From a virus, in the IMG/VR virus record IMGVR_UViG_3300028840_004876: DNA of 57,483 nt. One strand, written 5' to 3'. Position numbers and translations under genes: made by a program. The notes beneath the pieces were generated by a model. That model had not been told where the DNA came from and did not search any database. It was given only the letters and a program-made list of their open reading frames with translations. Shown here in pieces: positions 9,853 to 34,332 of this stretch. The stretch's first letter is position 1, and every line of letters begins with the position of its first letter.

Positions 9853-10005
9853 GGCACAGGTAATGCCTCCAGGGCCCCTAGGGCACCACTGGGGCCCTGG
9901 GGGCCACCTACGCGATGATTCATACCTGTCTAGCCCCACCCTGCGAGTATGGACGACCCAGGGCTGCCCCTGGACGACAGACGGGCCTTCATGAGAGGAG
10001 GGACG

Positions 10006-10569
10006 ATGGCCGAGCAGGATGTTGCCATGTTCGTGGACCGCGCGTTGCGCGCGGCCGATCGCGTGGAGGACGTCCACGTTGAGACGCTTCGCGCACTCAT
10101 CGAGCTCTCGGACACGGTGAAGAAGAACGAGGCGTCGCTCACGAGCGAGCAGCTCTGCGACGCGGGCTTCATGTGCCGCCAGATGGAACGGTGGGCGGAC
10201 GAGCTGCGCAAAGAGGCGAAGGCCAGACGCGAGCGCCTCGCGTACCTCATCGCGTATCGCGCGGCGCAGGCGGTCGCGACCAACCCTACGGCCGAGACCA
10301 CCGTGCGCGGGAAGTACGCGACCGGTACCCCGGACGTGAAGGTCGCTGCCGGACTGCCGAAGCGCGACACGCCCGAGTACGCGAAGCTCTGCGAGTGGCT
10401 CGGAGTCAGCGAGGAGGCGCAAAAGTCGGGCGCCATCCGCTTCCACTTCAACACGCTCATGGACATCGTGAGCGAGCGCATCGCGGCGGGGCAGGACGTC
10501 CCGCCGGGCATCACCAAGACGTACTCGATGTTCGTGACCAAGTTCATCGCGCGGCGTCGCGCGAAATGA
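10006..10569 (+). CDS. Hypothetical protein (187 aa), possibly an accessory factor for recombination or replication
   Basis: The start was moved to ATG 10006, which follows gagaggaggg (RBS). No motif recognised. Confidence 0.55.
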   Translation: MAEQDVAMFVDRALRAADRVEDVHVETLRALIELSDTVKKNEASLTSEQLCDAGFMCRQMERWADELRKEAKARRERLAYLIAYRAAQAVATNPTAETTVRGKYATGTPDVKVAAGLPKRDTPEYAKLCEWLGVSEEAQKSGAIRFHFNTLMDIVSERIAAGQDVPPGITKTYSMFVTKFIARRRAK

Positions 10570-10582
10570 GAGGAGGCCCACA

Positions 10583-11419
10583 GTGGCCAAGCGAGACGAC
10601 AAGCCGAAGGAAGTCGTAAAGGTCGAGGCGCCGCCGCAGTGGCTGGCCGAGGCCGCGGAGACGGACCAGTCCATCGAGGCGATGGCCGAGCACCGTGTGC
10701 TGCCCCGTCTCAAGGTCGTCCAGGGCATGAGCGACTCCGCGCTCAAGGACGCGGTGGGCGAGGGCGGCGTCGTCCTCACGCCGGGCAACGTTCTGGTCTG
10801 CTCCAGGGACGAGGGCTTCGAGTTCGTCCCGGTGTTCTTCTTCACCGAGTTCATCGAGATGTCCGACATCAACGACTCGGAGTCGCCCACGGTGCTCGAG
10901 CGCACCTTCGACGTCACGCACCCGCTCGCCGTCCGCGCGCGTGACGCGGACCAGTGGGAGCGCGACTACGGTCCCGAGGACTCGAAGGGCCGCGCGAAGT
11001 ACACGGCCCGTGCCTGCGAGGTCTTCAACTTCGTCGGCTTCCTCGACGGCGGCGACATCCCCGCCGAGCTCCACGGCGTGCCGCTGACGATCACGTTCGC
11101 GCGCGGCGAGTTCAACACCGGCCGGTCGTTCATCACGGCCATCACCATGCGGCGCGTCGGCGGGAAGATCGTCCCGCTGTGGGCGCAGCGCTGGGCGTTC
11201 ACCATCGGGTTCCGTGAGCGCGACTCGAAGAAGTGGTACGGTCTGGACGTTCGCAACCCGGCGCAGCCGTACATCAGCGAGGAGCAGGGCGCGATGTTCA
11301 AGGGCGCGCACGAGGAGTTCGCCGAGCTCTTCGAGAAGCAGCGCCTCAGCGTGGACCACGAGGACAAGCCCGCCGACGCCGAGATCGTCGAGGAGGGCGA
11401 GGACGAGTCGGAATTCTAG
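10583..11419 (+). CDS. Hypothetical protein, candidate ssDNA-binding protein with an acidic C-terminal tail ending in EF
   Basis: GTG start 7 nt after the gagaggagg RBS. The C-terminus is ADAEIVEEGEDESEF. The gene lies between helicase genes. The SSB call is an inference from the tail and the context only. Confidence 0.45.
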   Translation: MAKRDDKPKEVVKVEAPPQWLAEAAETDQSIEAMAEHRVLPRLKVVQGMSDSALKDAVGEGGVVLTPGNVLVCSRDEGFEFVPVFFFTEFIEMSDINDSESPTVLERTFDVTHPLAVRARDADQWERDYGPEDSKGRAKYTARACEVFNFVGFLDGGDIPAELHGVPLTITFARGEFNTGRSFITAITMRRVGGKIVPLWAQRWAFTIGFRERDSKKWYGLDVRNPAQPYISEEQGAMFKGAHEEFAELFEKQRLSVDHEDKPADAEIVEEGEDESEF

Positions 11420-11433
11420 GCGTCGCATCCTTC

Positions 11434-11460
11434 GCGGGGCGTGGAAGGTCCGCGCCCCGC
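11434..11460 (+). terminator. GC-rich hairpin after the SSB-like gene
   Basis: gcggggcg pairs with cgccccgc across an 11-nt loop. There is no clear U-tract. Confidence 0.4.
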
Positions 11461-11489
11461 GTTCACTTGGCCGCGCACAGAGGTAGCCG

Positions 11490-14354
11490 GTGAATCTACT
11501 CGCCATCAACGCGCTCTCGGAACTCGAACGCGCTGGCTGGAAGTACGAGCCAGCGGGCGAGAACGAGGTCCGCATCCGTTGCCCTGCTCACGACGACGAT
11601 ACTCCGAGTGCGGCGGTCAACACCGCCAAGAACAAGTGGAAGTGTCACGCCGCGGGCTGTAAGGGGAGCGGTGACATCGTCACGCTGCTTGCGCTCATCA
11701 TGAGCGTTGAGCGCGCGACGATGCTCGCGGATCTCTCAACGCGTTACGAGCTTCAAGAGGTCAAGTCTATTCAGCCGTCTCGCATCGAGACGCTTCACGC
11801 GAAGATCTGGGACGCCGGTCCGTTGCTCACGTCACTACGCGAGCGCGGAGTTACAGACCCGATGATCCGTGCTGCGCGCCTAGGCTTCGCCAAGGGGCGC
11901 ATCACGATCCCGGTGTACGATCTCCAGCGTCGGATCATCAACGTGCGTCGCTACTTGCCGGGCGCGCCAGGCCCGAACAAGATGCGGAACACGAAGGGCT
12001 ACGGGCGTCCCGCCATCTACCAGCCTGAGCAGCTTGCGAAGTTCGACAAGGTAGTGTGGTGCGGCGGTGAGATGAAGGCGCTCGCCGCTGGCTGGTACCT
12101 CAAGCGCAAGGGTATCGGCGCGTTCTCGGTCACGGCTTCCGAGGGGGTATGGGAATCGCGGTGGAACGGTCTGCTCAAAGGCAAGACCGTGTACATCTGT
12201 ATGGATGTGGACCACCACGGTGAGCTCGCCGCGACCAAGGCCGCGCGTCTTATCGCACGCGCCGCCGCGGCCGTCTACATCTGCCGCATCCCGTTGGACG
12301 TCGAGAAGTATCCCAAGGGCGACCTCAACGACTGGATCGGCCACGAGGGAGCGCGCACCTCTGAGTTAGTACAGATGCTCGAGGACGCGGAGCTCTTCGA
12401 CCCGGCAGACCAGGTGACTGTCACCGGCGCCAACGGTGACGCCACCGACGTTCGCATACAAGAGGTCACGGACCCGCGCAACGTTGCGCGCCGCATCGCG
12501 TTCACAGGCGTCGTGTCTGCCCTCGCCGAGACGCCGTTCCTCGTGCCGAGTAAGCTCACGGCGTTCTGCGATCGCGACCAGCCGTTGTGTCACGCCTGCC
12601 CGATCAACCAGCTCGAGCCGTCGCGCAGCGACAACTCTGTTGAGGTCGAGGTGCCACCGACGGCGCTCGGCATGCTCATGCTGGTGGACCAGCCAGCCGG
12701 TCGGCAGCGTGAGGGAGTGATGGCAGCGCTCGGGGTACCGCGATGTAAGGTCGCGCAGTTCGTGCCGCAAGAGCACTCACGCGTGCACGACGTTCGGCTG
12801 GCGCCGACGTTGCTCATAACGTCCGAGGGCACCAGCAACCACGCGCAACCAGCGCTCATCGTGAACCACACGCCTGAGCTCAACGTCCCGTACCGCTTCG
12901 AGGGCGTCACGTACCCGCACCCTGCGAACCAGCAAGCCGTGCTGCTCATCGACAAGCTCGAGCTTGCTGAGGACAGCCTGTCATCGTTCGCGCCATCGGT
13001 CAGCGATCTCGAGACGCTCAAGATACTTCAGCCTCGGAGTTGGACGCTCGACTCGCTGAGCGACAAGCTCGACCAGCTATGGACAGACCTCGAGCACAAC
13101 GTGACCCGGATCTTCGGACGACGCGAGCCGCACGTGCTCTTCGATCTCGCGTACCATTCGCCGCTGGTCATCCAGGCGAACGGCCGCAACGTCCCTGGCT
13201 GGGTTAACGTCCTCATCGTCGGAGACAGCGGCCACGGCAAGTCCGAGATGGGTACGCAGATCTCGCAGCACTACGGTCTCGGCGAGAGAGTCGAGGCGAA
13301 GAACGCCACCGTGGCTGGCATACTCGGAGGCCTCTCGCAAATCGGGAATCGCTGGTTCGTACAGTGGGGTGTGATACCCACGCACGACCGGCGCCTCGTC
13401 ATCCTCGAGGAGATCAAGGGCGCGGACCCGGAGGTGATCGCGAAGCTCACCGACATGCGGTCCTCTGGCGTTGCTGAGCTTCAGAAGATCGAACGGCGTC
13501 GCGCACACGCGCGAACACGGCTCATCATGATCTCGAACCCGCGTGGCGCGAAGCGTCTCGAGAACTTCAACTTCGGCGTTGACGCCATCAAGGAGCTCAT
13601 CGGTGGGCTCGAGGACATCCGGCGTTTCGACGCCGCGTGCCTCATGTCCGGGAAGCAAGTCGACGTGGCGCAGATGACAGCGCTGGCCAGCGAGCCATCG
13701 AAGATCCCGAACGTGCTCACGCGCGACGTGGCCCGACGCGCCATCCTGTGGGCGTGGACACGAACGCCCGGGCAAGTCGAGTTCGAAGACACGACGTGGG
13801 AAATGATACGGGAGAAGACCCTTGAGCTCTGCGCCAAGTACACCGAAGCCATCCCGCTCATCGACCGCGGAACGACCCGCTTCAAGCTGGCTCGTCTCAG
13901 CGCTGCTCTGGCGGCGCGAACATTCTCCGTTCGCGACGATCCGCAGGTCATCGTGGTTCGACCCTGCCACGTCCAGTACATTGCCCGATTCCTTGACGCC
14001 CAGTACGGTGATCCTCATTTCGGGTACGCGGACTACTCACGAGCGCAAGTCCAAGCGGACGAGCTCGTAGACCCGAAGCTCATACAACGCCAGCTCATGG
14101 GAACCAAGTACCCGAAGGACCTCGTGAGCTCGCTGCTCTACCGTGACGAGATCACAACGCACGACTTCGAGGACTGGTGCGAGGTCGACCAGGAGTCCGC
14201 GCGTCGACTTGTCAGCTTCCTCGTTCGCAAGCGCGCGATGTTCCGCAAGAAGCGGCAGTACCGGAAGACCGCGGAGTTCATCGCGCTGCTTAAGACGCTG
14301 GCCGAAAGCGACCTGCCGGACACTGGCGAGTCGCACGAAGAAGACGAGTTCTGA
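11490..14354 (+). CDS. Primase-helicase fusion: CHC2 zinc finger and Toprim (DnaG-type) followed by an MCM-like AAA+ ATPase
   Basis: CPAHDDDTPSAAVNTAKNKWKCHAAGC (CHC2). WCGGEMKAL...ICMDVDHHGE...GDLNDW (Toprim). VLIVGDSGHGKSEM (Walker A). RRLVILEEIKG (Walker B). TRLIMISNP (sensor 1). EDIRRFD (Arg finger). The acidic tail is GESHEEDEF. Confidence 0.8.
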   Translation: MNLLAINALSELERAGWKYEPAGENEVRIRCPAHDDDTPSAAVNTAKNKWKCHAAGCKGSGDIVTLLALIMSVERATMLADLSTRYELQEVKSIQPSRIETLHAKIWDAGPLLTSLRERGVTDPMIRAARLGFAKGRITIPVYDLQRRIINVRRYLPGAPGPNKMRNTKGYGRPAIYQPEQLAKFDKVVWCGGEMKALAAGWYLKRKGIGAFSVTASEGVWESRWNGLLKGKTVYICMDVDHHGELAATKAARLIARAAAAVYICRIPLDVEKYPKGDLNDWIGHEGARTSELVQMLEDAELFDPADQVTVTGANGDATDVRIQEVTDPRNVARRIAFTGVVSALAETPFLVPSKLTAFCDRDQPLCHACPINQLEPSRSDNSVEVEVPPTALGMLMLVDQPAGRQREGVMAALGVPRCKVAQFVPQEHSRVHDVRLAPTLLITSEGTSNHAQPALIVNHTPELNVPYRFEGVTYPHPANQQAVLLIDKLELAEDSLSSFAPSVSDLETLKILQPRSWTLDSLSDKLDQLWTDLEHNVTRIFGRREPHVLFDLAYHSPLVIQANGRNVPGWVNVLIVGDSGHGKSEMGTQISQHYGLGERVEAKNATVAGILGGLSQIGNRWFVQWGVIPTHDRRLVILEEIKGADPEVIAKLTDMRSSGVAELQKIERRRAHARTRLIMISNPRGAKRLENFNFGVDAIKELIGGLEDIRRFDAACLMSGKQVDVAQMTALASEPSKIPNVLTRDVARRAILWAWTRTPGQVEFEDTTWEMIREKTLELCAKYTEAIPLIDRGTTRFKLARLSAALAARTFSVRDDPQVIVVRPCHVQYIARFLDAQYGDPHFGYADYSRAQVQADELVDPKLIQRQLMGTKYPKDLVSSLLYRDEITTHDFEDWCEVDQESARRLVSFLVRKRAMFRKKRQYRKTAEFIALLKTLAESDLPDTGESHEEDEF

Positions 14355-14365
14355 GAGGAGACGAG

Positions 14366-15064
14366 ATGCCTGAGAGATTGGAGACGCGACGGCTGTTGCG
14401 CCACCGAGCGGCGGCGACGTCACGACCTTACATGGCGGCGCAGCTGCCCGGTGGAGAGGTGCTCGTGTTCGACACGCGGCCCTCCGGCGGTGGCCCGTTC
14501 TTCCCGGACATGGACGAGGACCGGGCGGCAGCGTACGCGCTGTCGATGTGCCGCGCGTGGAATGACGCGCTCGGTCGCGAGGACACCACACCACACACGG
14601 ATCTCGTACGACGCTTCCACGAGCGCCACCACTTCGGGATCGACCGTAACCTCTGCGAGGAAGGCGGCGATCACGACATGTTCCCCGCTGCGATGCTCAC
14701 GGCCATGGCGATGCAGGTGCTGGCGATGTCCGAGACGCTCGCGGCGTACGCCAGGAAGAGCGAACCGAACGGCGACTGGCGCATGAGTCGCGCGCACAAC
14801 ATGACCGAGGAACTCGCCGAGGTGCTCTTGGCCATGGCGGCCAAGGATCCTGTCGCGCTGCTCGACGGCCTGGGTGACTTGGCGTATGTCACGCATGGCA
14901 CCGCGGTCGTGTACGGGCTTCCGCTGGAGCGCGGGTTCCGGGAGATCCATCGGTCGAACATGACCAAGGACCCCGCGCCGGAAGGCGAGGTCACCCTGCA
15001 CCCGGTCAAGGGCGAGAACTACGAGCCGCCGGATCTCGCCGGTTGCTTCGAGGTGACGGAATGA
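14366..15064 (+). CDS. All-alpha NTP pyrophosphohydrolase (MazG / PRA-PH-like)
   Basis: MTEELAEVLLAMAAKDPVALLDGLGDLAYVTHGTAVVYGLPLERGFREIHRSNMTK matches the EExxE...D...D...sNmsK pattern of MazG-like phage enzymes. A gagaggag RBS lies upstream. Confidence 0.7.
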   Translation: MPERLETRRLLRHRAAATSRPYMAAQLPGGEVLVFDTRPSGGGPFFPDMDEDRAAAYALSMCRAWNDALGREDTTPHTDLVRRFHERHHFGIDRNLCEEGGDHDMFPAAMLTAMAMQVLAMSETLAAYARKSEPNGDWRMSRAHNMTEELAEVLLAMAAKDPVALLDGLGDLAYVTHGTAVVYGLPLERGFREIHRSNMTKDPAPEGEVTLHPVKGENYEPPDLAGCFEVTE

Positions 15065-16107
15065 GCCAGGTCAACCACGCCGCGGATCGCAAGGGCGCGG
15101 CGCTGTGCCTCGACGAGGCGTGGCACTACGCGGCGGCCGAGCTGTGGGACCACGCCGCTCACGCGACGTCGCGAGACGGTGACATCTTCGCGGAGCTTCC
15201 GGCCGCGCGTCTCATGCTCATGAACACCCGCGCCGTGTGGATGATGGGGCCGCGCAGCCCTTCACCGCTGTACGCTGCGGGCGAGCTCATGTGGTACCTC
15301 AGCGGGTCGGAGGATGGCGAGTTCATCTGCCACTATGCTCCGAGTTACGAGCGGTTCCTCAACGACGGCGTCGCGCTCGGCGCGTACGGGCCGCACATTC
15401 GTGGCCCGCTCAAGAGCGTGGGTGGCTTCGACCCGCTCATGCGGATCGCGTCGCTTCTCACAGCGAAGCCCGATACCCGGCAGGCCGTGTTGCCGATCTA
15501 CGGCTATCACGACCTCCAGGCTGCGGGCTCGCTGGCGAACGACATACCCTGCACACTCGGTCTTCAGTTCCTCGTGCGCGATTCGAGTCTCAACGTGATC
15601 TCGACCATGCGCTCGAACGACCTATGGCAGGGTCTGCCGTACGACATCTTCGCGTTCGCGACCATCAACGTTCTGCTGGCGCACCACCTCGACCTCTCGC
15701 CAGGATGGATCTGCCACCAGGCGGGATCGCTTCACCTGTACGAGCGCCACGCTGAGGCGACGCACCGCGCGATACTCAGCGGCCAAGACATGTACGCGCG
15801 ACCGCCGAAGCTGGGGTGGTGGACGCGTCGCGAGCCGGGCCGGCTGTTCCACGATCTCGCCGCCGCGGTCGCGCTCGAGCGTCGCTTTCGCGAGGATCGC
15901 GAGGTGCCGCTGGCCGAAGCGATCTCGTGCATCCAGCAGAGTCTCGGGGCGCGAACGCTGCTCGGCACCATCGTCGCGCTCTGCTACGCGAACCGCCGGG
16001 CCTTCAACATCGACGAAGCGAACGCGATGAACGTCGTCATCCCCGACTGGCTCATCGCCAAGGTCATCAACTGGCAGGGCCGTCAGCGAGCGTGGAGGAA
16101 GTCATGA
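15061..16107 (+). CDS. Thymidylate-synthase-family enzyme with the cytosine-type Asp. Predicted dCMP C5-hydroxymethylase or dCMP C5-methylase.
   Basis: ATGA overlap with the upstream stop. DIPCTLGLQFLVRDSSLNVISTMRSNDLWQGLPYDIFAFATI...GSLHLYERH aligns without gaps to E. coli ThyA [41 protein letters not shown]...GDTHLYSNH. Asp replaces Asn177. Confidence 0.75.
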   Translation: MSQVNHAADRKGAALCLDEAWHYAAAELWDHAAHATSRDGDIFAELPAARLMLMNTRAVWMMGPRSPSPLYAAGELMWYLSGSEDGEFICHYAPSYERFLNDGVALGAYGPHIRGPLKSVGGFDPLMRIASLLTAKPDTRQAVLPIYGYHDLQAAGSLANDIPCTLGLQFLVRDSSLNVISTMRSNDLWQGLPYDIFAFATINVLLAHHLDLSPGWICHQAGSLHLYERHAEATHRAILSGQDMYARPPKLGWWTRREPGRLFHDLAAAVALERRFREDREVPLAEAISCIQQSLGARTLLGTIVALCYANRRAFNIDEANAMNVVIPDWLIAKVINWQGRQRAWRKS

Positions 16108-16652
16108 TCACGCTCATCATCGAAGGCGCAGACAACCTCGGCAAGACCACGGCCGCGAAGAGGCTCGCGGCGCTGCACCTCGATCGGACCGGGGAGGCTA
16201 TCCCCGTCATCCATCACGGCCCGCCAACGGACCCCGTGATGGAATACTCGACCGAGCTCCTGCGCCCTGCCATACACGACCGTGGCCATCTTGGCTGGCT
16301 TGTGTGGCAAGGCATGCTGGCGCAAAGCGGGACGGAGTTCGACCGCCTCGCGATGGAGCAGCTGGTCCGGGTGCTGCGCGTCGTCCATCGTGTGATCGTC
16401 GTGTGCCTGTACGCCGATGACGACTGGTACTGCGAGCGCATCGCAGAGTACGACGATCGCGATGAGCTCATGCCGCCCAACATTCGACGGGTCGCGAACC
16501 GCGCGTTCGCGCAGCTCTGCTGGTCGCGCGACGGTAACTGTGAGAAGTACGTCGACATCCCTTACAACGTCAGCGTCAGCGGGTTCCCCAGCGATGCGAC
16601 CTTGAACCGCTGGCTGGACCGCTGCTCCCTGCGCCAGAGTGAGGCGCTCTGA
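16104..16652 (+). CDS. P-loop kinase, thymidylate-kinase-like (dNMP kinase; a DNA-level kinase is an alternative)
   Basis: ATGA overlap with the upstream stop. LIIEGADNLGKTTAAKRLA (P-loop, Tmk-like) and AIHDRGHLGWLVWQ (DRY..S..AYQ-like). Confidence 0.65.
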   Translation: MITLIIEGADNLGKTTAAKRLAALHLDRTGEAIPVIHHGPPTDPVMEYSTELLRPAIHDRGHLGWLVWQGMLAQSGTEFDRLAMEQLVRVLRVVHRVIVVCLYADDDWYCERIAEYDDRDELMPPNIRRVANRAFAQLCWSRDGNCEKYVDIPYNVSVSGFPSDATLNRWLDRCSLRQSEAL

Positions 16653-18681
16653 GGTCACAGTGATAGAGCTTGAGACCCACGACGGTCGAGTCGTCAATCT
16701 CGTTGAGCACGCCCGTGAGCTGCCAGAGTTCACGGGCGTTCAGCGGGTCTACGCCGACTGCGAGACCACGTCCGGCGACCCGAAGGTGAAAGCCTTCAAG
16801 CCGTACGGTGGGCATCGCATCGCTGGCGTGGCCGTGCTGCGCGACGACGAGGCGACGGCGTGGTACGTCCCGGTGCGCCACAAGCATGGGCGCAACATCC
16901 CGGCGCAGGCGGTGCGTCGCTGGCTCCGAGACATGATGACCGTCCCGGAGTGGGTGAACCACAACGTCAAGTTCGACGCGCACTTTGTCGCGTGCGCCGG
17001 CCGTGGCGACGAGCTCGTCTTCCCTGGCCGCATGATCGACACCGCCACGCTCGCCAAGTGCCACGACACGGATCGCATGGGTCACGGGCTCAAGGCGGTA
17101 TGCGCCGACTGGCTCGAGCAAGATCTCTCTGAGCAGGACGAGGTCGAGGCGTACCTGAAGAACGAGAAGACCAAGGACTACGGGGAGCTGCCAGCGGATC
17201 TCTGCGGGCGGTACGCCGGCCAGGACGTCTTGATGAACCGCGAGCTCATGCGGTTCCTCGAGGACCAGCGGCCGGAACAGATGCGCGACACGTGGGAGAC
17301 CGAGATCCTTCTCACGCCTGTCCTCTTCGACATCGAGCGAGCGGGCATGCGTGTGAACGATCTCGCCGTGAAGAAGCTCAAAGTCAAGACGCTGCGGTCG
17401 ATACTCGGGGCGCAGCAGGAGATCGTGGACCTCACTGACGGCCGCGAGTTCGTCGACTCTAGCAAGAACCTGTACGACCTCATCGTGAACGTGCTCGGTC
17501 TTCCGGTCCTCAAGTGGAACACGGACCCCGAGTCGAAGGAGCGTGGCTCGCCGTCCTTCGACAAGGAAGCGCTTGAGCTGTACGGTATGCACCCCGAGGT
17601 GCTTCACCAGCCGAGGAACGCGCGCGTGATCGAGCTCATCAAGTCGGCGCGCGCTGAGTCGCACTTCCTCAGCAACTACTTGGAGGTCTTCGGTCAGGCG
17701 GTTGAGACCGGTGGCTTCGTTCATCCGAGCTTCAACCAGCTCATTCGGACGGGGCGCATGAGCGCCTCGGACCCGAACGTGATGGGGATGAGCAAGGCCG
17801 CCAAGGATCTCATCATCCCCGACGACGACGAGTACGGCATCCTCACTGCGGACGCAGAGCAGATTGAGTTCCGTCTCATCGTCCACTACATCCGTGATGC
17901 CGATGCGATCGCAGCGTACGCGCGTGACCCGGACACGGACTTCCACATGTGGGCGGCGCGGCTGTGCGAGGTCGAGCGCACGCCCGCGAAGACTCTCAAC
18001 TTTGCGATGGGCTACGGCGCAGGGAAGAAGCGCGTCGTGTCGCTGCTGCTCACGGACCCCACGATCATGCACGACGTCGGCGAGATCATCGCCCAGCAGA
18101 TCGAGGAGGGTCGCGTACCCGAACGCCTACGCGCACAGGCGTACCACCGGCTGTGCGAGCGTCGCGCGCAGGGCGTGTACACGCGGTACCACGAACGCCT
18201 GCCCGGGATCAAGAGGACCTCGCGAGCTGCGGCGCAGAAGTGCATCATGCGTGGGTACGTCTTCAACCCGTTCGGCCGTCGCCGTCACTTGCCGCCTCGC
18301 GCTGCGCACAAGGCCTTCAACACCATCGTCCAGGGCGGTGCGATGGACATCATCAAGCGGCGGATGATTCGGTTGGCTCCGCGTTACAACTCGTGGGTGC
18401 GGAACAGCGACATCCGTCTCTTCGGAAACGTCCACGATGAGCTGCCGCTTCACGGGCCACGCGAGGCGCTGGAGGACCCGAAGATCCAGGCGCGCATCCA
18501 CGCGGTGCTCGAGACCACAGACATCGACTTCCGGGTTCCGTTCACCTGGGAGGCCGGCTACTCACCGCTGTCGTGGAAGGCGGCGGGAGCGAAAGAGAAC
18601 GTCATCGACAAGATCCGGCTGCGGAAGATCGCCCTCGAGGAGGGCTTCCTCGGCCCGCAAATGCGGAGGTACTACGAGTGA
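16639..18681 (+). CDS. Family A DNA polymerase with a 3'-5' exonuclease domain
   Basis: YADCETT (ExoI), NHNVKFDAHF (ExoII), YAGQDV (ExoIII), ADAEQIEFRLIVHY (motif A), RTPAKTLNFAMGYGAG (motif B), NVHDEL (motif C). The start is GTG 16639 or GTG 16660. Confidence 0.93.
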   Translation: MRRSEVTVIELETHDGRVVNLVEHARELPEFTGVQRVYADCETTSGDPKVKAFKPYGGHRIAGVAVLRDDEATAWYVPVRHKHGRNIPAQAVRRWLRDMMTVPEWVNHNVKFDAHFVACAGRGDELVFPGRMIDTATLAKCHDTDRMGHGLKAVCADWLEQDLSEQDEVEAYLKNEKTKDYGELPADLCGRYAGQDVLMNRELMRFLEDQRPEQMRDTWETEILLTPVLFDIERAGMRVNDLAVKKLKVKTLRSILGAQQEIVDLTDGREFVDSSKNLYDLIVNVLGLPVLKWNTDPESKERGSPSFDKEALELYGMHPEVLHQPRNARVIELIKSARAESHFLSNYLEVFGQAVETGGFVHPSFNQLIRTGRMSASDPNVMGMSKAAKDLIIPDDDEYGILTADAEQIEFRLIVHYIRDADAIAAYARDPDTDFHMWAARLCEVERTPAKTLNFAMGYGAGKKRVVSLLLTDPTIMHDVGEIIAQQIEEGRVPERLRAQAYHRLCERRAQGVYTRYHERLPGIKRTSRAAAQKCIMRGYVFNPFGRRRHLPPRAAHKAFNTIVQGGAMDIIKRRMIRLAPRYNSWVRNSDIRLFGNVHDELPLHGPREALEDPKIQARIHAVLETTDIDFRVPFTWEAGYSPLSWKAAGAKENVIDKIRLRKIALEEGFLGPQMRRYYE

Positions 18682-19928
18682 AGAAGGAAGACGGGACCGC
18701 AATCGGAGTCCACGCGTTCGCGGGTGGCCTCACACTGGGCATGGACCGCGTGTTCAACGTCAAGGGTCAACTCGAAGTCTTCGACCTCGGCTGCGACAGC
18801 GTGCGTCACAATCTCGGGATCCCCGTCGTCCGTTGCGACGACGCGTCGTGGATGGACTCGCCGCCCGAGTGGGCCGAGAAGGCGCAGATCGTCTTCGGCA
18901 ACCCGCGGTGCACGGCGTTCAGCTGTCTCAACCGCGGGTGCGGGAAAGACGGGTACGGGCCCGAGGGCCGCGCGACCAAGGACGTTCGGCAGGCCGTCGA
19001 CTTCGTGGAGCGCGTGCGTCCGCACGTGTTCGTGTGGGAGTCCGTTCAGCCAGCGATCACCGCGGGCCTTCCGCTCGTCCTCGACATCGAGGAGCGCCTC
19101 GCCAAGCTGCGGTACTCGCCGACGCGGCTGCTGCTCAACGCAGCGACGTGGCACAACTCGCAGAACAGGCGTCGCTTCTTCCACGTGTTCACGAAGCCTG
19201 GCATCCACTTCTGGCCCGACGTCCCGGAGGTCCCGAAGAAGTGGCTCACCGTCCGCGAGGTGATCGAGGACCTCGCTGAGCACGAGGTGACCAGCGACCA
19301 TCAGTGGAACTACGAGACACCGGAGGACGCGGCGCAGGACGAGGTGCTCAACCACCACTGGTGGGACGACCCGTGCTTCACGCGTCTCGTCTGCTCGCTC
19401 GTCCCGCCAGGGCGCTCGATGAATGACGTGCCGTGGGACGACCTGCTCAAGATCCAGGCGGAGGGATTCAGCGGTTACGTCGACGGCTACCTCAGAGGCG
19501 CAGGCTCGTTCTCGCGTCACGCCGCGCGACGTCTCCATCCCGACGGCGCGAGCCGCGTCGTGTACGGTGGCTGGCACATGACGATCCACCCGTGGCTCGA
19601 CCGCGGCGTCACCGTGCGTGAGACCGCGAGGCTCATGGGGTTCCCCGACGACTGGGTCTTCCTTGGTCCGGCCGGTGGCTACGCGCAGATCGGGAAGGGC
19701 GTCGTGCCGGCCGTCGCGGAGTGGCTCGCGTGGCAGATCCTTCGAGCCATCGACTCGCCGAACCCGACCAAGCGCAAGAAGGAGTGGCGGTTCAACACGC
19801 GGACGCGGATGGTCGAGGAGCGCCGCGTGCCGGATGGCGAGGTGCGCACGTTCGATCTCACGCGCATGACTGCGAAGGTGCCGCGCCCGAAGCTCGCGCC
19901 TCGACGGAGCGTGTTCGAAGGCTACTGA
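18678..19928 (+). CDS. DNA (cytosine-5) methyltransferase-like protein with atypical catalytic motifs
   Basis: GTGA overlap with the polymerase stop. HAFAGGLTLG (motif I), FGNPRCTAFS (motif IV, PRC instead of PC), FVWESV (motif VI, ESV instead of ENV), SQNRRRFF (motif VIII), TVRETARLMGFPDDW (IX), GKGVVPAV (X). Confidence 0.8.
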   Translation: MKKEDGTAIGVHAFAGGLTLGMDRVFNVKGQLEVFDLGCDSVRHNLGIPVVRCDDASWMDSPPEWAEKAQIVFGNPRCTAFSCLNRGCGKDGYGPEGRATKDVRQAVDFVERVRPHVFVWESVQPAITAGLPLVLDIEERLAKLRYSPTRLLLNAATWHNSQNRRRFFHVFTKPGIHFWPDVPEVPKKWLTVREVIEDLAEHEVTSDHQWNYETPEDAAQDEVLNHHWWDDPCFTRLVCSLVPPGRSMNDVPWDDLLKIQAEGFSGYVDGYLRGAGSFSRHAARRLHPDGASRVVYGGWHMTIHPWLDRGVTVRETARLMGFPDDWVFLGPAGGYAQIGKGVVPAVAEWLAWQILRAIDSPNPTKRKKEWRFNTRTRMVEERRVPDGEVRTFDLTRMTAKVPRPKLAPRRSVFEGY

Positions 19929-19957
19929 GAAAAACTCTGAGTTAGCGGAGATTGCTG

Positions 19958-19986
19958 TTGACGGCCCATGGCCCGTGGTGTAGAAT
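19958..19986 (+). promoter_or_regulatory. Early promoter P1: TTGACG, 17-nt spacer, TAGAAT
   Basis: Exact 17-nt spacer. CTGAGAAAAACTCTGAG lies upstream at 19925. The conserved leader aacagtcgattgaaaccacgggccgcacagaacaggag follows. Confidence 0.7.
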
Positions 19987-20034
19987 TTCAACAGTCGATT
20001 GAAACCACGGGCCGCACAGAACAGGAGACGAACA

Positions 20035-20499: not shown

Positions 20500-20507
20500 A
20501 GCTGCGC

Positions 20508-20536
20508 GCCGGGCGCCTCCACGAGGGGCGCCCGGC
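20508..20536 (+). terminator. Hairpin terminator gccgggcgcc-tccacgagg-ggcgcccggc
   Basis: 10-bp GC stem with a 9-nt loop. The stem-loop is identical to the one at 24604..24632. Confidence 0.55.
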
Positions 20537-20555: not shown

Positions 20556-20562
20556 AAGGTTG

Positions 20563-20591: not shown

Positions 20592-20644
20592 AGCAACAGT
20601 CGATTGAAACCACGGCCGCACGGAACCACGAACAGGAGCCAGCC

Positions 20645-21925: not shown

Positions 21926-21945
21926 ACATTGCGTATCCGCAATGT
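21926..21945. promoter_or_regulatory. Perfect 20-bp palindrome ACATTGCG-TATC-CGCAATGT just upstream of the RBS of the sugar operon
   Basis: 8-bp arms with a 4-nt spacer. It ends 15 nt before ATG 21960. Confidence 0.5.
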
Positions 21946-21959
21946 CGAGAGGAGGAAGC

Positions 21960-22559
21960 ATGCATCAACTCAGAGTTGCGAGCGTCGCCCCCTTCGAGGG
22001 AGTGAAGCTCGTCAAGTACGGTCGCTTCGACGACGAGCGCGGGTACTTCGCCGAGCCGTTCCGCGCCAGCCAGATGGCCGACGTCGTCGGCGCGCCCATC
22101 GTCCAGATGAACGAGTCGCTGTCGCACGCGGGCGTACTCCGAGGTCTCCACTTTCAGTGGGCGCCCTTCATGGGCAAGCTCGTTCGCGTGATCGACGGGT
22201 ACATGGTCGACATCGTGTGCGACATCCGCGTCAACTCGCCGACGTACGGCGTGGTCCAGATGGTCCGCATGCTCCCTGGCAGCGGATGGATCTGGGTCCC
22301 GCCGGGTTTCGCACACGGGAACGCGTTCCCGGTCCGCACGCGCATTCAGTACCTGTGCACGGGCGAGTACTCGCAAGAGACGGAGGCCTGCCTGTCGCCA
22401 CTCGGGACGGACCTCGACTGGTCCCTCTGCGACCCCGCCGTGCTCGAGGTCGTGCGCGCGTGCCCGACCATCTCGATGAAGGACCGCGACGGCTACTCGG
22501 CGCAAGAGTGGCTGGCCGACGAGCGGTCGATGAACTTCCTGTATGAGGACCTCCGATGA
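21960..22559 (+). CDS. rmlC: dTDP-4-dehydrorhamnose 3,5-epimerase-like cupin (RmlC family)
   Basis: FDDERGYFAEPF, VLRGLHFQ, KLVRVIDGYMVDIVCDIRVNSPTYG and WVPPGFAHGN. The start was moved to ATG 21960, which follows gagaggaggaagc. Confidence 0.85.
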   Translation: MHQLRVASVAPFEGVKLVKYGRFDDERGYFAEPFRASQMADVVGAPIVQMNESLSHAGVLRGLHFQWAPFMGKLVRVIDGYMVDIVCDIRVNSPTYGVVQMVRMLPGSGWIWVPPGFAHGNAFPVRTRIQYLCTGEYSQETEACLSPLGTDLDWSLCDPAVLEVVRACPTISMKDRDGYSAQEWLADERSMNFLYEDLR

Positions 22560-23281
22560 CCCGCGACGCCAGCGTCCTCTTCACCGGCGGCTCGGGCCTC
22601 TTGGGCGCCGCCATGCGAGCCAGGCGCCCCGGCCTCAGGTACCCGCCTAGGGGCGCGTTCGATGTAACCCGCCCGTCGGCAATGCGAAACTACGTGGAGG
22701 CCCTTAGCCTGTCCTGTATCGTCCACGCAGGGGCCTTTACGTCCCCACCACGGGTAGACGCTGACCCTGCCCGGGCGATCGAGGTCAACGTGGCGGGCAC
22801 CGCGCACGTGGCCGCGCTGTGCGCGGCGCGGAAGCTGCGCCTCATCTACATCTCGACGGACTACGTCTTCCGTGGCACGCGAGGACCGTACGCCGAGGAC
22901 GATCCCGTGTACCCCGTCAACTGGTACGCGTGGTCGAAACTCGGAGGTGAGTGCGCCGCTCGTCTCTGTCCGGGCAGCCTCATCATCCGCACCTCGTTCG
23001 GACCGGACGAGTTCCCGTACGAGAAGGCGTTCTACGATCAGCTCACGTCGCGGGTCTCGGTGAGCGTGTTCGCAGACGCGCTGTCGCGACTCATCGACTC
23101 GGACGTGTCCGGAGTCCTGCACGTGGGCCACTACGAGGGCCGCTCCGTCCTGGCGTTCGCGCGGGAGCAAGGCGCGGCGCCGGAGCAAGTCACTCGCTTC
23201 GACATGCCGTTCGCTGTTCCGTATGACACCACGCTCGACGTCGACCGATGGCTCGAGCTCAACGAGGAAGGACGTGTGTGA
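22556..23281 (+). CDS. rmlD: dTDP-4-dehydrorhamnose reductase-like SDR (RmlD family, short form, 241 aa)
   Basis: ATGA overlap with the upstream stop. LFTGGSGLLGAA (Rossmann), YISTDYVF and NWYAWSKLGGE (YxxxK). Confidence 0.7.
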   Translation: MTRDASVLFTGGSGLLGAAMRARRPGLRYPPRGAFDVTRPSAMRNYVEALSLSCIVHAGAFTSPPRVDADPARAIEVNVAGTAHVAALCAARKLRLIYISTDYVFRGTRGPYAEDDPVYPVNWYAWSKLGGECAARLCPGSLIIRTSFGPDEFPYEKAFYDQLTSRVSVSVFADALSRLIDSDVSGVLHVGHYEGRSVLAFAREQGAAPEQVTRFDMPFAVPYDTTLDVDRWLELNEEGRV

Positions 23282-24246
23282 TGCGCATCGTACTCTGCGG
23301 AGGTGGGGGCTTCATCGGCTCGGCGCTGGCGCCCGAGCTCGTCCAACGCGGCCACGACGTCACGGTGCTCGACCTCTTCTGGTTCGGGCGCGCGATGCCG
23401 AGCGACGTCACGGACGTGAAGCAAGAGCTCTTCGACTGCTGCGGCGACGACTTCGAGAATGCGGACGTCGTCGTGTTCCTGGCCGGCCTGTCGAACGACC
23501 CGATGGCCGAGTTCAGCCCGGCTCTGAACTTCAAGTACAACGCCGCGCTCCCTGCGCTGCTCGCGTTTCTCGCGCGTGGCATCGGCGTGCGTCGCTTCGT
23601 CTACGCCTCGAGCTGCTCCGTGTACGGGTGGGCGCCCGACGAGGAGCAGACCGAGAGCGGCACCATCGACTGCGACTACCCGTACGGCATCGCGAAGCTT
23701 CAGGGCGAGGCCGGCGTTTCTCGGATGCTGTGCGACGGAGAGTTCGAAGTCGTCGCGCTGCGGAAGGGAACCGTCTGTGGTCACAGCCCGCGCCCGCGTG
23801 CGGACCTCATCGTGAACGCGATGATCAAGTCCGCGCTCACCGAGGGCGTCATCTACATCAACGACGCCACGACGTGGCGTCCGCTACTCAGCGTCCGCGA
23901 CGCCGTGCGTGCGTACGTGCGTGCGATCGAGGGACGCGCCAGCGGCGTGTTCAACGTCGCGAGCGTGAACGCGACCGTGCGCGAGGTCGCGGACGACGTG
24001 CTCGCGACGCTGTGCCTGTTCAAGTACGGCGCCGGCGTCGAGATCGTGCACCGCATGCGGAAGGACCGCCGCAGTTACCGCGTGAGCACCGCGTCGTTCC
24101 GCGCCGTGTTCGGCAACTGCTTCAGCGACGGCGTACGCGACATGGCCGCGAGCGTCCTTCAGAACCTCGAGGCGTACGGGGACTTCAGCGACCCCGCGCT
24201 GAGCAACATCGAGACGTTCAAGGCCCTCGGAGAAAATCTCAGTTAA
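23281..24246 (+). CDS. NAD-dependent sugar epimerase/reductase (extended SDR). It lacks the TDE dehydratase triad.
   Basis: TGATG overlap with the upstream stop. LCGGGGFIGSAL, YASSCSVYG and YPYGIAKLQGE (YxxxK). The sequence is SCS where 4,6-dehydratases have TDE. Confidence 0.8.
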   Translation: MRIVLCGGGGFIGSALAPELVQRGHDVTVLDLFWFGRAMPSDVTDVKQELFDCCGDDFENADVVVFLAGLSNDPMAEFSPALNFKYNAALPALLAFLARGIGVRRFVYASSCSVYGWAPDEEQTESGTIDCDYPYGIAKLQGEAGVSRMLCDGEFEVVALRKGTVCGHSPRPRADLIVNAMIKSALTEGVIYINDATTWRPLLSVRDAVRAYVRAIEGRASGVFNVASVNATVREVADDVLATLCLFKYGAGVEIVHRMRKDRRSYRVSTASFRAVFGNCFSDGVRDMAASVLQNLEAYGDFSDPALSNIETFKALGENLS

Positions 24247-30415: not shown

Positions 30416-31441
30416 ATGAGCTGTACCTACTACTGTGACGGGTGTGGGAAGAAGCTCGGTTCGCACGTCGAGGGCGTGCTGAAGGCCGAGCACCGCACTC
30501 GCAACGGGCGCACCCTTTCCGTGTTCGTTCAGCCACAGCTGGTCAACGGCGAGCACTGGTGCCACGACTGCCAGCGCGCGGCCATCGCGTCCACGGGAGA
30601 CGGGCGCAAGCAGCCGATGGCAGAGCGTGTCGACCTGCCCGTGGTTGAGAAGCGCGGCGAGGAGCTGCCGCTGTCGCGGTATCGCAACAGCGACTGGCGC
30701 GTGAGCGTGATCAACGACATCATGAATAGCGCTGCCGACGCTGCGCCGCAGTACGGCATCGACAAGATGATCGCGCTCGAGTTGCGGGAGCGCGCGCAGC
30801 TCGCGTTGCTCGACGCGTGGGTCGCGGGCGTCAGACATCAGCTCTCGCTTCGCGATGACTTCGGCGCCGACGAGAAAGCGTACGCCGGTGAGGCGCTTCA
30901 CGAGCTCGCGAGGGTCGTCACGGGTCAGATCACCGACGTCAAGGCTGCGCTGAAGGGCGCGTACAACACCGGACTCGGAGTCGGCGTCAGGCGCAACTAC
31001 AACGATCTCGAGGCTGCGCGCGAGCAGCGGAACAAGTACAAGGAACGGCGCGACGCCGTGTACCGGGTGTTCCGCAGTGTCATCGCCGCGCTCGGCTTCG
31101 AGGACATGCCCGTCGAGACGCTTCACGCGGTACAGCTGGACCAGTGGCTGGCGCGAAGCGAGCCGCGTCTTCGCGAGCTGGTCGAGACCCGTGATAGGCT
31201 GCGCTCGGCGAATCGCACCCTCAGTCGTCGTCGGCGTGAGCGCGACGCCGCGGTCGAGGACCTCAGCACCGTCGCGAGGATCATCGAGTGCGAAGACCAG
31301 CAGCACATCATCGAGCGGGCGCGCCAGCTGCGGTCTGCGAAGTCGACGGCGTGGGACATGCTCAGCACGCTGCGAACGAAGATTCAGCATGGCGCGCCGC
31401 GCGATCAGCTGCTCGAGAACATCGCCGAGGTGCTCGGATGA
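30416..31441 (+). CDS. Zinc-ribbon plus coiled-coil protein (341 aa)
   Basis: The start was moved to ATG 30416, which follows gagagaggaggaagtg. CDGCGKK...CHDC. Confidence 0.55.
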   Translation: MSCTYYCDGCGKKLGSHVEGVLKAEHRTRNGRTLSVFVQPQLVNGEHWCHDCQRAAIASTGDGRKQPMAERVDLPVVEKRGEELPLSRYRNSDWRVSVINDIMNSAADAAPQYGIDKMIALELRERAQLALLDAWVAGVRHQLSLRDDFGADEKAYAGEALHELARVVTGQITDVKAALKGAYNTGLGVGVRRNYNDLEAAREQRNKYKERRDAVYRVFRSVIAALGFEDMPVETLHAVQLDQWLARSEPRLRELVETRDRLRSANRTLSRRRRERDAAVEDLSTVARIIECEDQQHIIERARQLRSAKSTAWDMLSTLRTKIQHGAPRDQLLENIAEVLG

Positions 31442-32082
31442 ATGTCATCGAGCCGAGCTACCAGATCGAGTACGTCACCGGCACGGAGTGTGACGATGAC
31501 CCCGTTCAGTCGCCCCTCGCTCTCATCGAGCGCGCGGCCCGTACGTGCTACAAGTCCGAGGCCCGCATCGCGCCCGGTACTGCCGAGAAGCTGACGCGTC
31601 ATCTCATCAAGCGCGGGCATCACGCGATGCTCGAGTTCGGGTTGGTGGTCGTGCGGTTCATCGTCGACCGCGGCGTCAGCCACGAGCTGGTCCGCCACCG
31701 CCTCTGCTCGTTCGCGCAGGAGTCGACGCGCTTCTGTAACTACAGCGGCGGTGTCACGTTCATCCGACCGCCGTGGCTAGACCAGGGCGGTTCCACGTCG
31801 GCAAGTGGTCGCTGGCGGCACGCCATGTCGAGAGCGGAGTCCGACTACCTCGCCTTGCTCCGCGGAGGTTGGACGCCGCAGCAGGCGCGCAGCGTTCTGC
31901 CGAACAGCACGAAGACCGAGATCGTGGTCGGCGCCAACTTCCGTGAGTGGCGAACGATCTTCGGTCTCCGCGTGGCGAAGGCCGCGCACCCGCAGATGCG
32001 GCAGGTCATGGTGCCCTTGCTCGAAGAGGTCAAGACCATCGTTCCCGTTCTCTTCGACGACGTTGAGGTGCCTGATGCTTGA
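31438..32082 (+). CDS. thyX: Flavin-dependent thymidylate synthase ThyX
   Basis: ATGA overlap with the upstream stop. VRHRLCSFAQESTRF is an exact RHRxxSxxxxSxR ThyX signature. Confidence 0.9.
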   Translation: MNVIEPSYQIEYVTGTECDDDPVQSPLALIERAARTCYKSEARIAPGTAEKLTRHLIKRGHHAMLEFGLVVVRFIVDRGVSHELVRHRLCSFAQESTRFCNYSGGVTFIRPPWLDQGGSTSASGRWRHAMSRAESDYLALLRGGWTPQQARSVLPNSTKTEIVVGANFREWRTIFGLRVAKAAHPQMRQVMVPLLEEVKTIVPVLFDDVEVPDA

Positions 32083-33125: not shown

Positions 33126-33334
33126 GGCTCCCGAAGAAGAAGGCCAAGGCGCAGAGCAAGGGCCAGATCATCTGCGCCGTCAACGCAACCGCGCGGTGCG
33201 AGATCGCTGCCGTGACGCCGGACAAGGCGGCGCTGGTCCGCCTCGGATGGAAGAGGTCCTCGCCGGAGGACGGGAAGCACGACACGTGGGCCTGCCCGCA
33301 CTGCTCGAAGATCGTGGAGGTACTCGGACGATGA
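33122..33334 (+). CDS. Small basic zinc-ribbon protein (70 aa)
   Basis: GTGA overlap with the upstream stop. ICAV...ARCE...CPHC. Confidence 0.45.
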   Translation: MRLPKKKAKAQSKGQIICAVNATARCEIAAVTPDKAALVRLGWKRSSPEDGKHDTWACPHCSKIVEVLGR

Positions 33335-34332
33335 AAGCGCTCATCACTGGCATGACACCGACGCAATGCGGTCGGCAGGCTCGCGGCATCACGGTCGCGG
33401 GTGACGGCTGGCGCAGCGCACTCGAGCACGCGGGGTGGGAAGTGGATCACCGCGTGATCGCTGTCAACGAGGACCTCGGCGAGTACGATGCCGTCCTCGT
33501 CGGGATCGGACAGATCAACTCCATGACTGCGAGGCACGCGAGCAGCGCACTGTACGCCTTGCTCGACCGGCCGGACGCGAAGCTCTTCTGCGACGACTGG
33601 CAGATCACGCAGGCGCACTCTGGCTTCCGCGTCGCACGCTGGTCGCCCATGCGCCTGTACACGATGGACGGTCGGCCGGGCAATACGCTGCTCTACCGCG
33701 ATCACCAGGACGCCGTCATGAAGGTGCTCAAGGAGTTCGCGAAGCCGCGGTGGAAGCGACCGATGCTCGTCGCGACGCACGGCGACGGCGTGCCGTACAA
33801 GCTGAAGGTCCCCGGTCCGGTGACGTGCGCGGACCCGTCCAACTTCACTCCGAGGTGGGCGCCGTACCCCTGGCCGCGTGAGCGTGCGTGGATCTGGGCA
33901 TCGCTGTACCGCTACGAGAAGAGCAAGAACCGCAAGACGCCGTGGGCGGGCACGTGGCCGATCGTCCATCACGGACGCGTCCGCGACCTGCCGAACGGCG
34001 TCGACCTCGACAACGACAAGGAGTTCATTCCGCAGGACGAGCTCATCGAGAAGATGCAGCGAACCGTGGGCTACGTCGTCCCCGAGCGCCCGCTCATGGG
34101 CAGTGGCTGGTGGCGTCACCGCTACGTTCTCGCGAGCGACAGCGGTAACGTGGTCGTGTGCCATCCGGACGAGGCCGCGATCTTCGGTGATGCGTACCTC
34201 GTCACGCCGCAGGAGGTCGAGGCGCATCCGGAACCGCACGCGCTCTGGCAGGCGCAACGCGATGCGCTCAACGCCGTGGTGTGGTCGGCCGACCGCTGCG
34301 CCGAGGTCGTGGACGAGTTCATGCGCTCATGA
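33331..34332 (+). CDS. Hypothetical protein (333 aa), candidate DNA base glycosyl/group transferase (weak)
   Basis: ATGA overlap with the upstream stop. MKALITGM..., EYDAVLVGIGQINS and GWWRHRYVLASDSGNVVVCHPDEA loosely recall the two Rossmann-like halves of T4 beta-glucosyltransferase. This is from memory and not verified. Confidence 0.3.
   Translation: MKALITGMTPTQCGRQARGITVAGDGWRSALEHAGWEVDHRVIAVNEDLGEYDAVLVGIGQINSMTARHASSALYALLDRPDAKLFCDDWQITQAHSGFRVARWSPMRLYTMDGRPGNTLLYRDHQDAVMKVLKEFAKPRWKRPMLVATHGDGVPYKLKVPGPVTCADPSNFTPRWAPYPWPRERAWIWASLYRYEKSKNRKTPWAGTWPIVHHGRVRDLPNGVDLDNDKEFIPQDELIEKMQRTVGYVVPERPLMGSGWWRHRYVLASDSGNVVVCHPDEAAIFGDAYLVTPQEVEAHPEPHALWQAQRDALNAVVWSADRCAEVVDEFMRS

Follow-up and report, generated by a model that had tools for sequence, protein, structure and literature searches.

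The 348-amino acid protein encoded by open reading frame (ORF) 15061..16107 of the virus record IMGVR_UViG_3300028840_004876 is most likely a deoxycytidylate (dCMP) 5-hydroxymethylase of the clade that contains MilA, a cytidylate (CMP) 5-hydroxymethylase, and it would feed a T4-like replacement of cytosine by 5-hydroxymethylcytosine (5hmC) that is followed by glycosylation. The window (the whole 57,483-nucleotide stretch analysed here) has an exact 144-bp direct repeat at its ends (positions 1-144 and 57340-57483) and is therefore a complete circular assembly, of a genome of about 57.3 kb; its GC content is 65%, and nearly all of its genes lie on one strand. Megablast found nothing among GenBank phages that matches positions 14000-20000.

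The initial annotation of this DNA, made from the sequence alone, had placed a ThyA-family enzyme at 15061-16107, and those limits are exact. The ATG start shares an ATGA with the upstream stop codon and is preceded by an AGGTGA Shine-Dalgarno sequence, and the stop likewise shares an ATGA with the start codon of the following gene, after GGAGGAAG. Pfam PF00303 (Thymidylat_synt) matches residues 71-238 (1.2e-22) and four PHROGs labelled "thymidylate synthase" also match (best 5.6e-32); "thymidylate synthase" is likewise the database annotation of proteins of this type. The protein falls below every cutoff of the NCBIfam ThyA models, the best score being 58.6 bits against 327. The gene and the codons that figure most in what follows are:

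15061..16107, + strand: predicted dCMP 5-hydroxymethylase with the ThyA fold (348 amino acids; from Pfam, alignment, residues and AlphaFold2)
15481-15483, + strand: Q141, which replaces Arg127' (family alignment)
15541-15543, + strand: D161, which replaces Leu143 (MAFFT)
15550-15552, + strand: C164, equivalent to the catalytic Cys146 of E. coli (MAFFT)
15643-15645, + strand: D195, which replaces Asn177 (MAFFT)

Active site and probable product

We aligned the ORF 15061..16107 protein with MAFFT to E. coli ThyA, phage T4 gp42 (dCMP hydroxymethylase, dCH), RB69 gp48, the Xp12 thymidylate synthase (TS) homologue and the core of MilA. Its segment NDIPCTLGLQFLVRDSSLNVISTMRSNDLWQGLPYDIFAFATI pairs with the E. 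coli ThyA segment with zero gaps, as had been reported initially. The TS catalytic set Cys146, Glu58, Tyr94 and Arg166 (E. coli numbering) is present as C164, E75, Y109 and R184, and further equivalences are R38 with R21, R140 with R126', S185 with S167, D187 with D169, and H225 and Y227 with H207 and Y209. The earlier claim that the catalytic Cys is kept and that an Asp stands at the Asn177 position thus holds; the Asp is homologous to Asn177, and the non-homology that had been set beforehand as a refutation is not seen in this alignment. D195 does not vary among the 69 sequences of a family alignment, and the column is Asp in all 120 database relatives. The role of residue 177 as a switch between uracil and cytosine, asserted in the initial annotation, is documented for T4 dCH Asp179, MilA Asp186 and E. 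coli N177D (PMC5175136, PMC6400193, PMC13326640), the last of which gives ThyA a preference for dCMP (PMC13326640).

An enzyme that acts on deoxyuridylate (dUMP), either an ordinary TS or an SPO1-type dUMP hydroxymethylase, would agree with the TS fold and with the database label, but it seems to us extremely unlikely. Asn177 is here an invariant Asp, TS and the SPO1 dUMP hydroxymethylase both retain Asn177 according to the MilA paper (PMC5175136), the ThyA equivalog cutoffs are missed by a wide margin, and the window already encodes a ThyX:

31438..32082, + strand: ThyX, flavin-dependent thymidylate synthase (Pfam PF02511, Thy1, 1.5e-44)

This ThyX, which the initial annotation had recognised at the same position, scores above the TIGR02170 cutoff (106.2 bits vs 87.9) and has the RHR-X7-S motif in its translation. 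It is the phage's own source of thymidylate (dTMP), so that the ORF 15061..16107 enzyme need not make dTMP, and the earlier opinion that this enzyme is unlikely to be the thymidylate source can be maintained.

Position 143 bears on the chemistry. Leu143 of ThyA keeps water out, hydroxymethylases have Asp or Glu there, and L143D or L143E changes lead to hydroxymethyl formation (PMC13326640); in T4 dCH the residue at this position, Asp145, holds the attacking water and activates it for addition to the exocyclic methylene; it also turns the pterin, blocking hydride transfer (PMC6400193). In ORF 15061..16107 the whole hydrophobic shield of ThyA (Leu143, Trp80 and Trp83) is gone, its positions being occupied by D161, Tyr and Phe, and D161 is invariant in the family alignment.

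An Xp12-type deoxycytidylate methyltransferase would make 5-methyl-dCMP by hydride transfer from tetrahydrofolate (THF), and the DNA would contain 5-methylcytosine (5mC) rather than 5hmC. The Xp12 TS homologue does have Asp177 and the segment GLPYD and is the second-best reference (63 bits vs 27 for T4 gp42), and the genome tolerates or uses 5mC, as it encodes a C5 methyltransferase. However, the Asp at position 143 is shared with T4 and MilA, both proven hydroxymethylases, and Xp12 has Asn there; Trp80, kept in Xp12 and ThyA, is Tyr in ORF 15061..16107; and the Xp12 TS is paired with dihydrofolate reductase (DHFR) and a dCMP deaminase, whereas the Pfam scan of the ORFs of 96-14354 and 14366-36765 turned up no DHFR (nor a dCMP deaminase, nor a TET/JBP dioxygenase, which by making 5hmC after replication would account for the C5 methyltransferase). 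With the tree and the glycosyltransferase discussed below, we consider a methylated product quite improbable, the defining features of the Xp12 type of enzyme being themselves poorly established.

Asp177 together with an acidic residue at position 143 also occurs in RB69 gp48, which represents, with DLP3 gp80, the flavin-dependent 5-hydroxy-dCMP synthases; if ORF 15061..16107 were of that type, 5-hydroxycytosine (5hoC) would be the glycosyl acceptor, and the sugar-nucleotide and glycosyltransferase genes of the window resemble the RB69 cluster in this respect. The change D169N is diagnostic of this class, having been found in RB69 gp48, DLP3 gp80 and nine more tested enzymes (PMC13326640). It is absent here, where D187 is invariant across the family, so the 5-hydroxy-dCMP synthase class is excluded by this residue; RB69 gp48 is also the most distant of the references (20 bits), and we give this alternative hardly any credence.

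Finally, of the characterised homologues MilA is the nearest, by sequence as well as by structure, the C-terminal helical domain included, which might suggest a MilA/BcmA-type hydroxymethylase acting on the ribonucleotide CMP, for a nucleoside metabolite or RNA. In MilA the preference for CMP is due to Lys133' and Ala176 and is reversed to dCMP in the A176S/K133R double mutant, and the deoxy-specific enzymes carry Arg and Ser at these positions (PMC5175136). The window's enzyme has the deoxy pair of TS and T4 dCH, Arg140 and Ser185, and a Lys/Ala pair is present in only one of the 120 relatives (P0110). The location of the gene between those for a deoxynucleoside triphosphate (dNTP) pyrophosphatase, a deoxynucleoside monophosphate (dNMP)-kinase-like protein and a DNA polymerase argues against CMP as well, and such an activity is very improbable. 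Three candidates were thus rejected on residue evidence, the 5hoC synthase (D187), the CMP hydroxymethylase (Arg140/Ser185) and the dUMP-acting enzyme (D195).

The residues D161, C164, S185, D187 and D195 form a five-residue signature (D143/C146/S167/D169/D177) identical to that of T4 gp42 and held by 119 of the 120 relatives; with R140, they argue for a deoxy-specific, cytosine-specific, folate-dependent hydroxymethylase. The motifs MRSND and GSLHLYERH match MRSND and GSLHVYSRH of T4 gp42, in agreement with what the initial annotation had stated of the T4 sequence. The same annotation had held that the sequence cannot tell hydroxymethyl-dCMP from 5-methyl-dCMP as the product, and here it was too cautious: the published residue rules lean clearly to hydroxymethyl (position 143 is D161, as in T4 and MilA, D187 is kept, and a glycosyltransferase like the T4 β-glucosyltransferase (BGT) co-occurs).

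From homology, the reaction would be dCMP + 5,10-methylene-THF + H2O -> 5-hydroxymethyl (5hm)-dCMP + THF. Cys164 would attack C6 of dCMP, Asp195 would read and protonate cytosine N3/N4, and Glu75 and Tyr109 would serve the acid/base steps that lead to the exocyclic methylene intermediate. Asp161 would position and activate the water that adds to this methylene, in place of hydride transfer from THF, and Arg140' and Ser185 would accommodate the 2'-deoxyribose phosphate.

Relationship to MilA and the C-terminal domain

MilA is the top sequence match in the PDB (E 6e-28), with ThyA entries at about 1e-12. In pairwise phmmer comparisons with the query MilA scores 100 bits, the Xp12 TS homologue 63, E. 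coli ThyA 48, T4 gp42 27 (31% identity over 107 residues) and RB69 gp48 20. In a neighbour-joining tree (168 core columns, 200 bootstraps; a crude method, with moderate support) MilA lies inside the family, beside P0110, the one relative with Lys/Ala; the family plus MilA is monophyletic in 135 of the 200 bootstraps, and the Xp12 homologue, which lies outside this clade, groups with the family to the exclusion of MilA in none of them. We use this tree as supporting evidence only.

MilA, a Streptomyces enzyme of an antibiotic pathway, is thus found nested among proteins that are otherwise of the phage dCMP-hydroxymethylase-like type, which suggests that it was recruited from a largely phage-borne clade of dCMP hydroxymethylases.

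An AlphaFold2 model of the protein built from the 69-sequence alignment has a predicted local distance difference test score (pLDDT) of 92.1 and a predicted template modelling score (pTM) of 0.92. Beyond the TS core it contains one more domain:

15778..16104, + strand: C-terminal five-helix domain (residues ~240-348; AlphaFold2 and Foldseek)

Its predicted helices span residues 262-278, 284-295, 300-310, 317-323 and 329-347. Foldseek aligns the model with MilA over its full length, about 335 columns (E ~3e-21; template modelling (TM) score 0.82-0.85 on the target), whereas ordinary TS structures align over 225-280 columns only. MilA has an extra five-helix domain that lies away from the active site, and truncations are reported to be insoluble (PMC5175136). 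Because the Foldseek alignment is full-length and the MilA paper describes the same domain, we conclude from the model that the C-terminal extension is a MilA-type domain, the predicted counterpart of helices α9-α13, and that its role is probably structural. The initial annotation had noted an extension of about 120 amino acids with no recognisable motif; the extension is real, at about 110 amino acids, but it is not featureless.

Neighbouring genes, the glycosyltransferase and the proposed pathway

The genes around ORF 15061..16107 that enter into the argument are:

11490-14354: primase-helicase, upstream of the MazG-like gene
14366..15064, + strand: MazG-like (all-alpha) nucleoside triphosphate (NTP) pyrophosphohydrolase (Pfam PRA-PH, 2.9e-11)
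16104..16652, + strand: P-loop (EGADNLGKTT) thymidylate-kinase-like protein (PHROG 761 "thymidylate kinase", 7.5e-5)
16639..18681, + strand: family A DNA polymerase (PolA) with 3'-5' exonuclease (Pfam DNA_pol_A 3e-38, DNA_pol_A_exo1 1e-6)
18678..19928, + strand: C5 cytosine DNA methyltransferase (Pfam PF00145, 2.3e-18; motifs FAGG, PRC, ESV, QNRRRFF and GKGVVP all present)
33331..34332, + strand: GT-B protein, predicted DNA 5hmC glycosyltransferase (AlphaFold2 and Foldseek)

The MazG-like, hydroxymethylase, kinase-like and polymerase genes form a coupled run of which PolA is the final gene, and this order, with 4-bp overlaps, is kept in the related loci L005 and L017; it is present too in the GenBank phage MW202657. 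The best PDB match of the MazG-like protein is the MazG-like NTP pyrophosphatase DR2231 of D. radiodurans (2e-6), and its start codon is uncertain because its homologues are only about 158 amino acids long. Homologous copies directly precede the TS-like gene in L005, L017 and L010, and lie upstream of it in L015 and L011. The kinase-like gene, whose ATG overlaps the hydroxymethylase stop codon as noted above, has a positional homologue in L005 (1e-20) and others in the glycosyltransferase (GT) cassettes of L015, L016 and L013; its product finds nothing in Pfam or NCBIfam, its PDB matches to thymidylate kinases are non-significant (E ~1), and in BLAST it matches RB69 gp45 only in the P-loop.

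The BGT-like ORF opens at a GTG at 33196, and its likely start is the ATG at 33331, which follows GGAGGT. The protein has no Pfam, PHROG-function, NCBIfam or PDB sequence match, BLAST gives no signal with T4 BGT, and hhalign with T4 BGT is weak (24% probability over the N-terminal 52 columns). Its AlphaFold2 model (pLDDT 93.1) has T4 DNA β-glucosyltransferase as all of its top six PDB matches in Foldseek (E 1e-9 to 3e-7, TM 0.56-0.65), led by 1qkj, 1nzd and 1j39 (E 1e-9, TM 0.60-0.65); the next tier consists of GT-B enzymes acting with TDP-deoxysugars, the T4 α-GT and a GT of phage HY126. A nearly invariant DDW (D88-D89) in the family follows the strand equivalent to that of T4 BGT Asp100, in a tentative register. 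An exhaustive HMMER search gave 436 relatives, of which the viral-library members are all annotated as "uncharacterized". In P0124, P0125, P0129, P0130, P0133, P0137 and P0144, and in loci L008 and L009, the BGT-like domain is fused C-terminally to a C5 DNA methyltransferase; in some of these fusions a domain of the uracil-DNA glycosylase superfamily separates the two halves, and in some the methyltransferase is interrupted by a LAGLIDADG intein. The window's own methyltransferase is 28% identical over its full length to the methyltransferase halves of P0124 and P0130, and matches the cassette methyltransferases with E values of 1e-22 to 5e-29. The protein P0123 (867 amino acids, L011 10001-12604), encoded directly after a C5 methyltransferase gene, has two tandem BGT-like domains, which may carry out two successive or two anomeric glycosylations.

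Genes of these types recur together. A cassette with a methyltransferase, a GT-like protein, MazG, a kinase and an Asp177-type TS homologue occurs in five or more further groups of phage contigs, and the kinase, MazG and methyltransferase of the window are homologous to the cassette copies. The recurring order is C5 methyltransferase, BGT-like GT, PRA-PH, a 170- or 312-amino acid P-loop kinase-like protein, TS homologue and dCMP deaminase. It is found directly in L015 and L016 and, with one extra 83-amino acid ORF, in L011 and L012; in L009 the methyltransferase and GT are fused and N6/N4 methyltransferases intervene, in L013 and L014 the GT precedes the methyltransferase and the dCMP deaminase is further upstream, and the short contig L008 contains no more of it than a methyltransferase-GT fusion and, after that, PRA-PH. 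All of the cassette TS homologues have D143/C146/S167/D169/D177, together with Gln127'. This enzyme type is accompanied in many phages by a BGT-like GT; because such a GT requires a hydroxyl acceptor, the association independently supports a hydroxymethyl over a methyl product; no BGT-like gene was found in bases 1-50000 of Xp12. A survey preprint has reported the association of GT-B enzymes with TS homologues in metaviromes (bioRxiv 2023.12.21.572611), so the type of pathway is already known. The coupling of a C5 methyltransferase to a GT would be new, if real.

The gene content is as observed, and from it we infer the following chemistry. The MazG-like pyrophosphatase would convert dCTP to dCMP, depleting dCTP; the ORF 15061..16107 enzyme would make 5hm-dCMP; the thymidylate-kinase-like protein and then host nucleoside diphosphate kinase would raise it to 5hm-dCTP; the phage PolA would put this into DNA; and the BGT-like GT-B enzyme would glycosylate the 5hmC there. 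ThyX would supply dTMP independently.

Several points weigh against a dCMP hydroxymethylase that feeds such a pathway. The residue rules that point to the product come from more distant homologues. T4 gp42 is a weak pairwise match (27 bits), and the Xp12 homologue scores higher (63 bits) and shares GLPYD. The tree is crude, with moderate support. Ser94 of T4, which holds water, has no counterpart here (G107/A108), and Arg127', the second phosphate-binding Arg, which comes from the partner subunit, is replaced by Gln in the query and most close relatives and in every TS homologue of the GT cassettes, while T4, RB69, Xp12, MilA and ThyA keep Arg. Of the partner proteins, the MazG-like protein, a putative analogue of T4 gp56 that would act on dCTP/dUTP to give dCMP/dUMP, has no BLAST similarity to gp56 and only a predicted specificity; the kinase-like protein, a candidate dNMP kinase for 5hm-dCMP -> 5hm-dCDP, has weak family matches and likewise a predicted specificity; and the T4-BGT-like GT is predicted from a modelled structure with a TM of about 0.6. 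Full replacement of cytosine would, moreover, leave the co-encoded C5 methyltransferase without a substrate.

The window also contains a set of three genes that are related to those of rhamnose synthesis:

21942-22559, + strand: RmlC-like 3,5-epimerase
22556-23281, + strand: RmlD-like reductase (only the N-terminal half matches)
23248-24246, + strand: GalE/4,6-dehydratase-like short-chain dehydrogenase/reductase

All three match Pfam/NCBIfam models below the equivalog cutoffs; the genes overlap one another (21942..24246), and no RmlA was seen. The trio may supply a 6-deoxyhexose donor, and TDP-deoxysugar transferases are in the second tier of structural neighbours of the GT; a link to DNA modification is hypothetical, and the trio could equally serve glycosylation of the virion or host surface. 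No homologues of the trio are present in any related locus examined, so the sugar-donor idea is without comparative support, and nothing relevant to rhamnose or deoxyhexose on phage DNA was found in the literature. RmlC homologues among GenBank phages are mostly in ~130-154-kb Escherichia/Klebsiella myoviruses and in records labelled as Campylobacter phages, and we know of no link between those phages and DNA modification. We offer only tentatively, as a rather unlikely elaboration, the idea that 5hmC in this DNA bears a phage-made, rhamnose-like 6-deoxyhexose instead of glucose, attached by the BGT-like GT, and that the C5 methyltransferase, which in other phages is fused to the GT, is its obligate partner in a two-armed module and methylates cytosine that escapes replacement. 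We found no report of such a sugar on any phage DNA.

The block containing the Rml genes is bracketed by an intergenic unit of about 65 nt that occurs four times (19945-20009, 20550-20614, 24248-24312 and 24646-24710). Each copy has σ70-like boxes (e.g. TTGACG, 17 nt, TAGAAT) followed by a conserved leader, AACAGTCGATTGAAACCACG, and two of the four are preceded by a GC-rich hairpin (~20507-20536 and ~24603-24632); they look like repeated terminator-promoter-leader units. Near ThyX, a 449-amino acid ORF at 30092-31441, whose stop overlaps the ThyX start, has no family match, and its first ~110 residues are of low complexity and rich in Arg, Ser and Thr; translation probably begins close to the Cys-rich segment MSCTYYCDGCGKK. 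An ATP-dependent DNA ligase gene (28363-29199) lies upstream of the ThyX block, and a VRR-NUC nuclease-domain protein is encoded just past the BGT-like gene (34281-34718); in MW202657 the VRR-NUC gene is right behind a HaeIII-type C5 methylase gene, and a ligase gene is at the upstream edge of the region compared.

Comparison with known systems

Among GenBank phages a close counterpart is the "pyrimidine hmase" UOF80032 of the Manatee Spring siphovirus MW202657, a label that is annotation alone. It is 42% identical to the ORF 15061..16107 protein, is encoded in a syntenic 56-kb genome and follows a gene labelled "ntP-ppase-like". MW202657 also has C5 methyltransferases and a BGT-like gene; unlike our window, it has a dCMP deaminase and is without the Rml trio.

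MilA of Streptomyces rimofaciens (PDB 5b6d, 5jnh and 5jp9) is 37% identical over the core and has the Asp residues at 143 and 177 and the Cys/Glu/Tyr/His set in common with the ORF 15061..16107 protein. The differences are its Lys133'/Ala176 pair and CMP preference, against Arg140/Ser185 here; Arg at the 127' position, where the window's enzyme has Gln; and its location in an antibiotic gene cluster, as opposed to a phage replication module. The Xp12 TS homologue (Xanthomonas phage; QNN97214, presumed to be a dCMP methyltransferase) shares Asp177, GLPYD and Ser167/Asp169, but has Asn143, keeps Trp80, is without the C-terminal helical domain and adjoins genes for DHFR and dCMP deaminase. RB69 gp48 and DLP3 gp80 (PMC13326640) have in common with our protein the TS fold, Asp177, an acidic residue at 143 and neighbouring sugar-nucleotide and GT genes; they differ in D169N and in the use of flavin and O2, with RB69 gp48 having Glu143 and Asn169 where ORF 15061..16107 keeps Asp169.

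The core finding is a new example of a known strategy and will not surprise the specialist; new, if true, would be no more than the possible deoxysugar and the coupling of the methyltransferase to the GT. Its practical consequences are that the protein can be re-annotated from "thymidylate synthase", that the five-residue signature can be used for sorting metagenomic TS homologues, and that such genes flag DNA that would be refractory to restriction enzymes, Cas nucleases and some sequencing chemistries.

T4 gp42 (EC 2.1.2.8; PDB 1b5e) has the identical five-residue signature, and MRSND and the GSLH-Y-RH motif are common to both proteins. At 246 amino acids it is without the C-terminal helical domain, and its Ser94 and Arg124 are not conserved in ORF 15061..16107. 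The pathway logic is alike, with a dCTPase analogue, hydroxymethylase, dNMP kinase, polymerase and BGT-like GT, the functions of the partners here being those predicted above, but the phage backbone (57 kb, 65% GC, PolA and ThyX) is unrelated to that of T4. It thus appears that the T4 strategy, in which cytosine is exchanged for 5hmC before replication and a sugar is then added, would operate in an unrelated PolA/ThyX lineage from different parts, with MazG in place of gp56, a hydroxymethylase of the MilA clade, a thymidylate-kinase-like kinase and a very divergent BGT.

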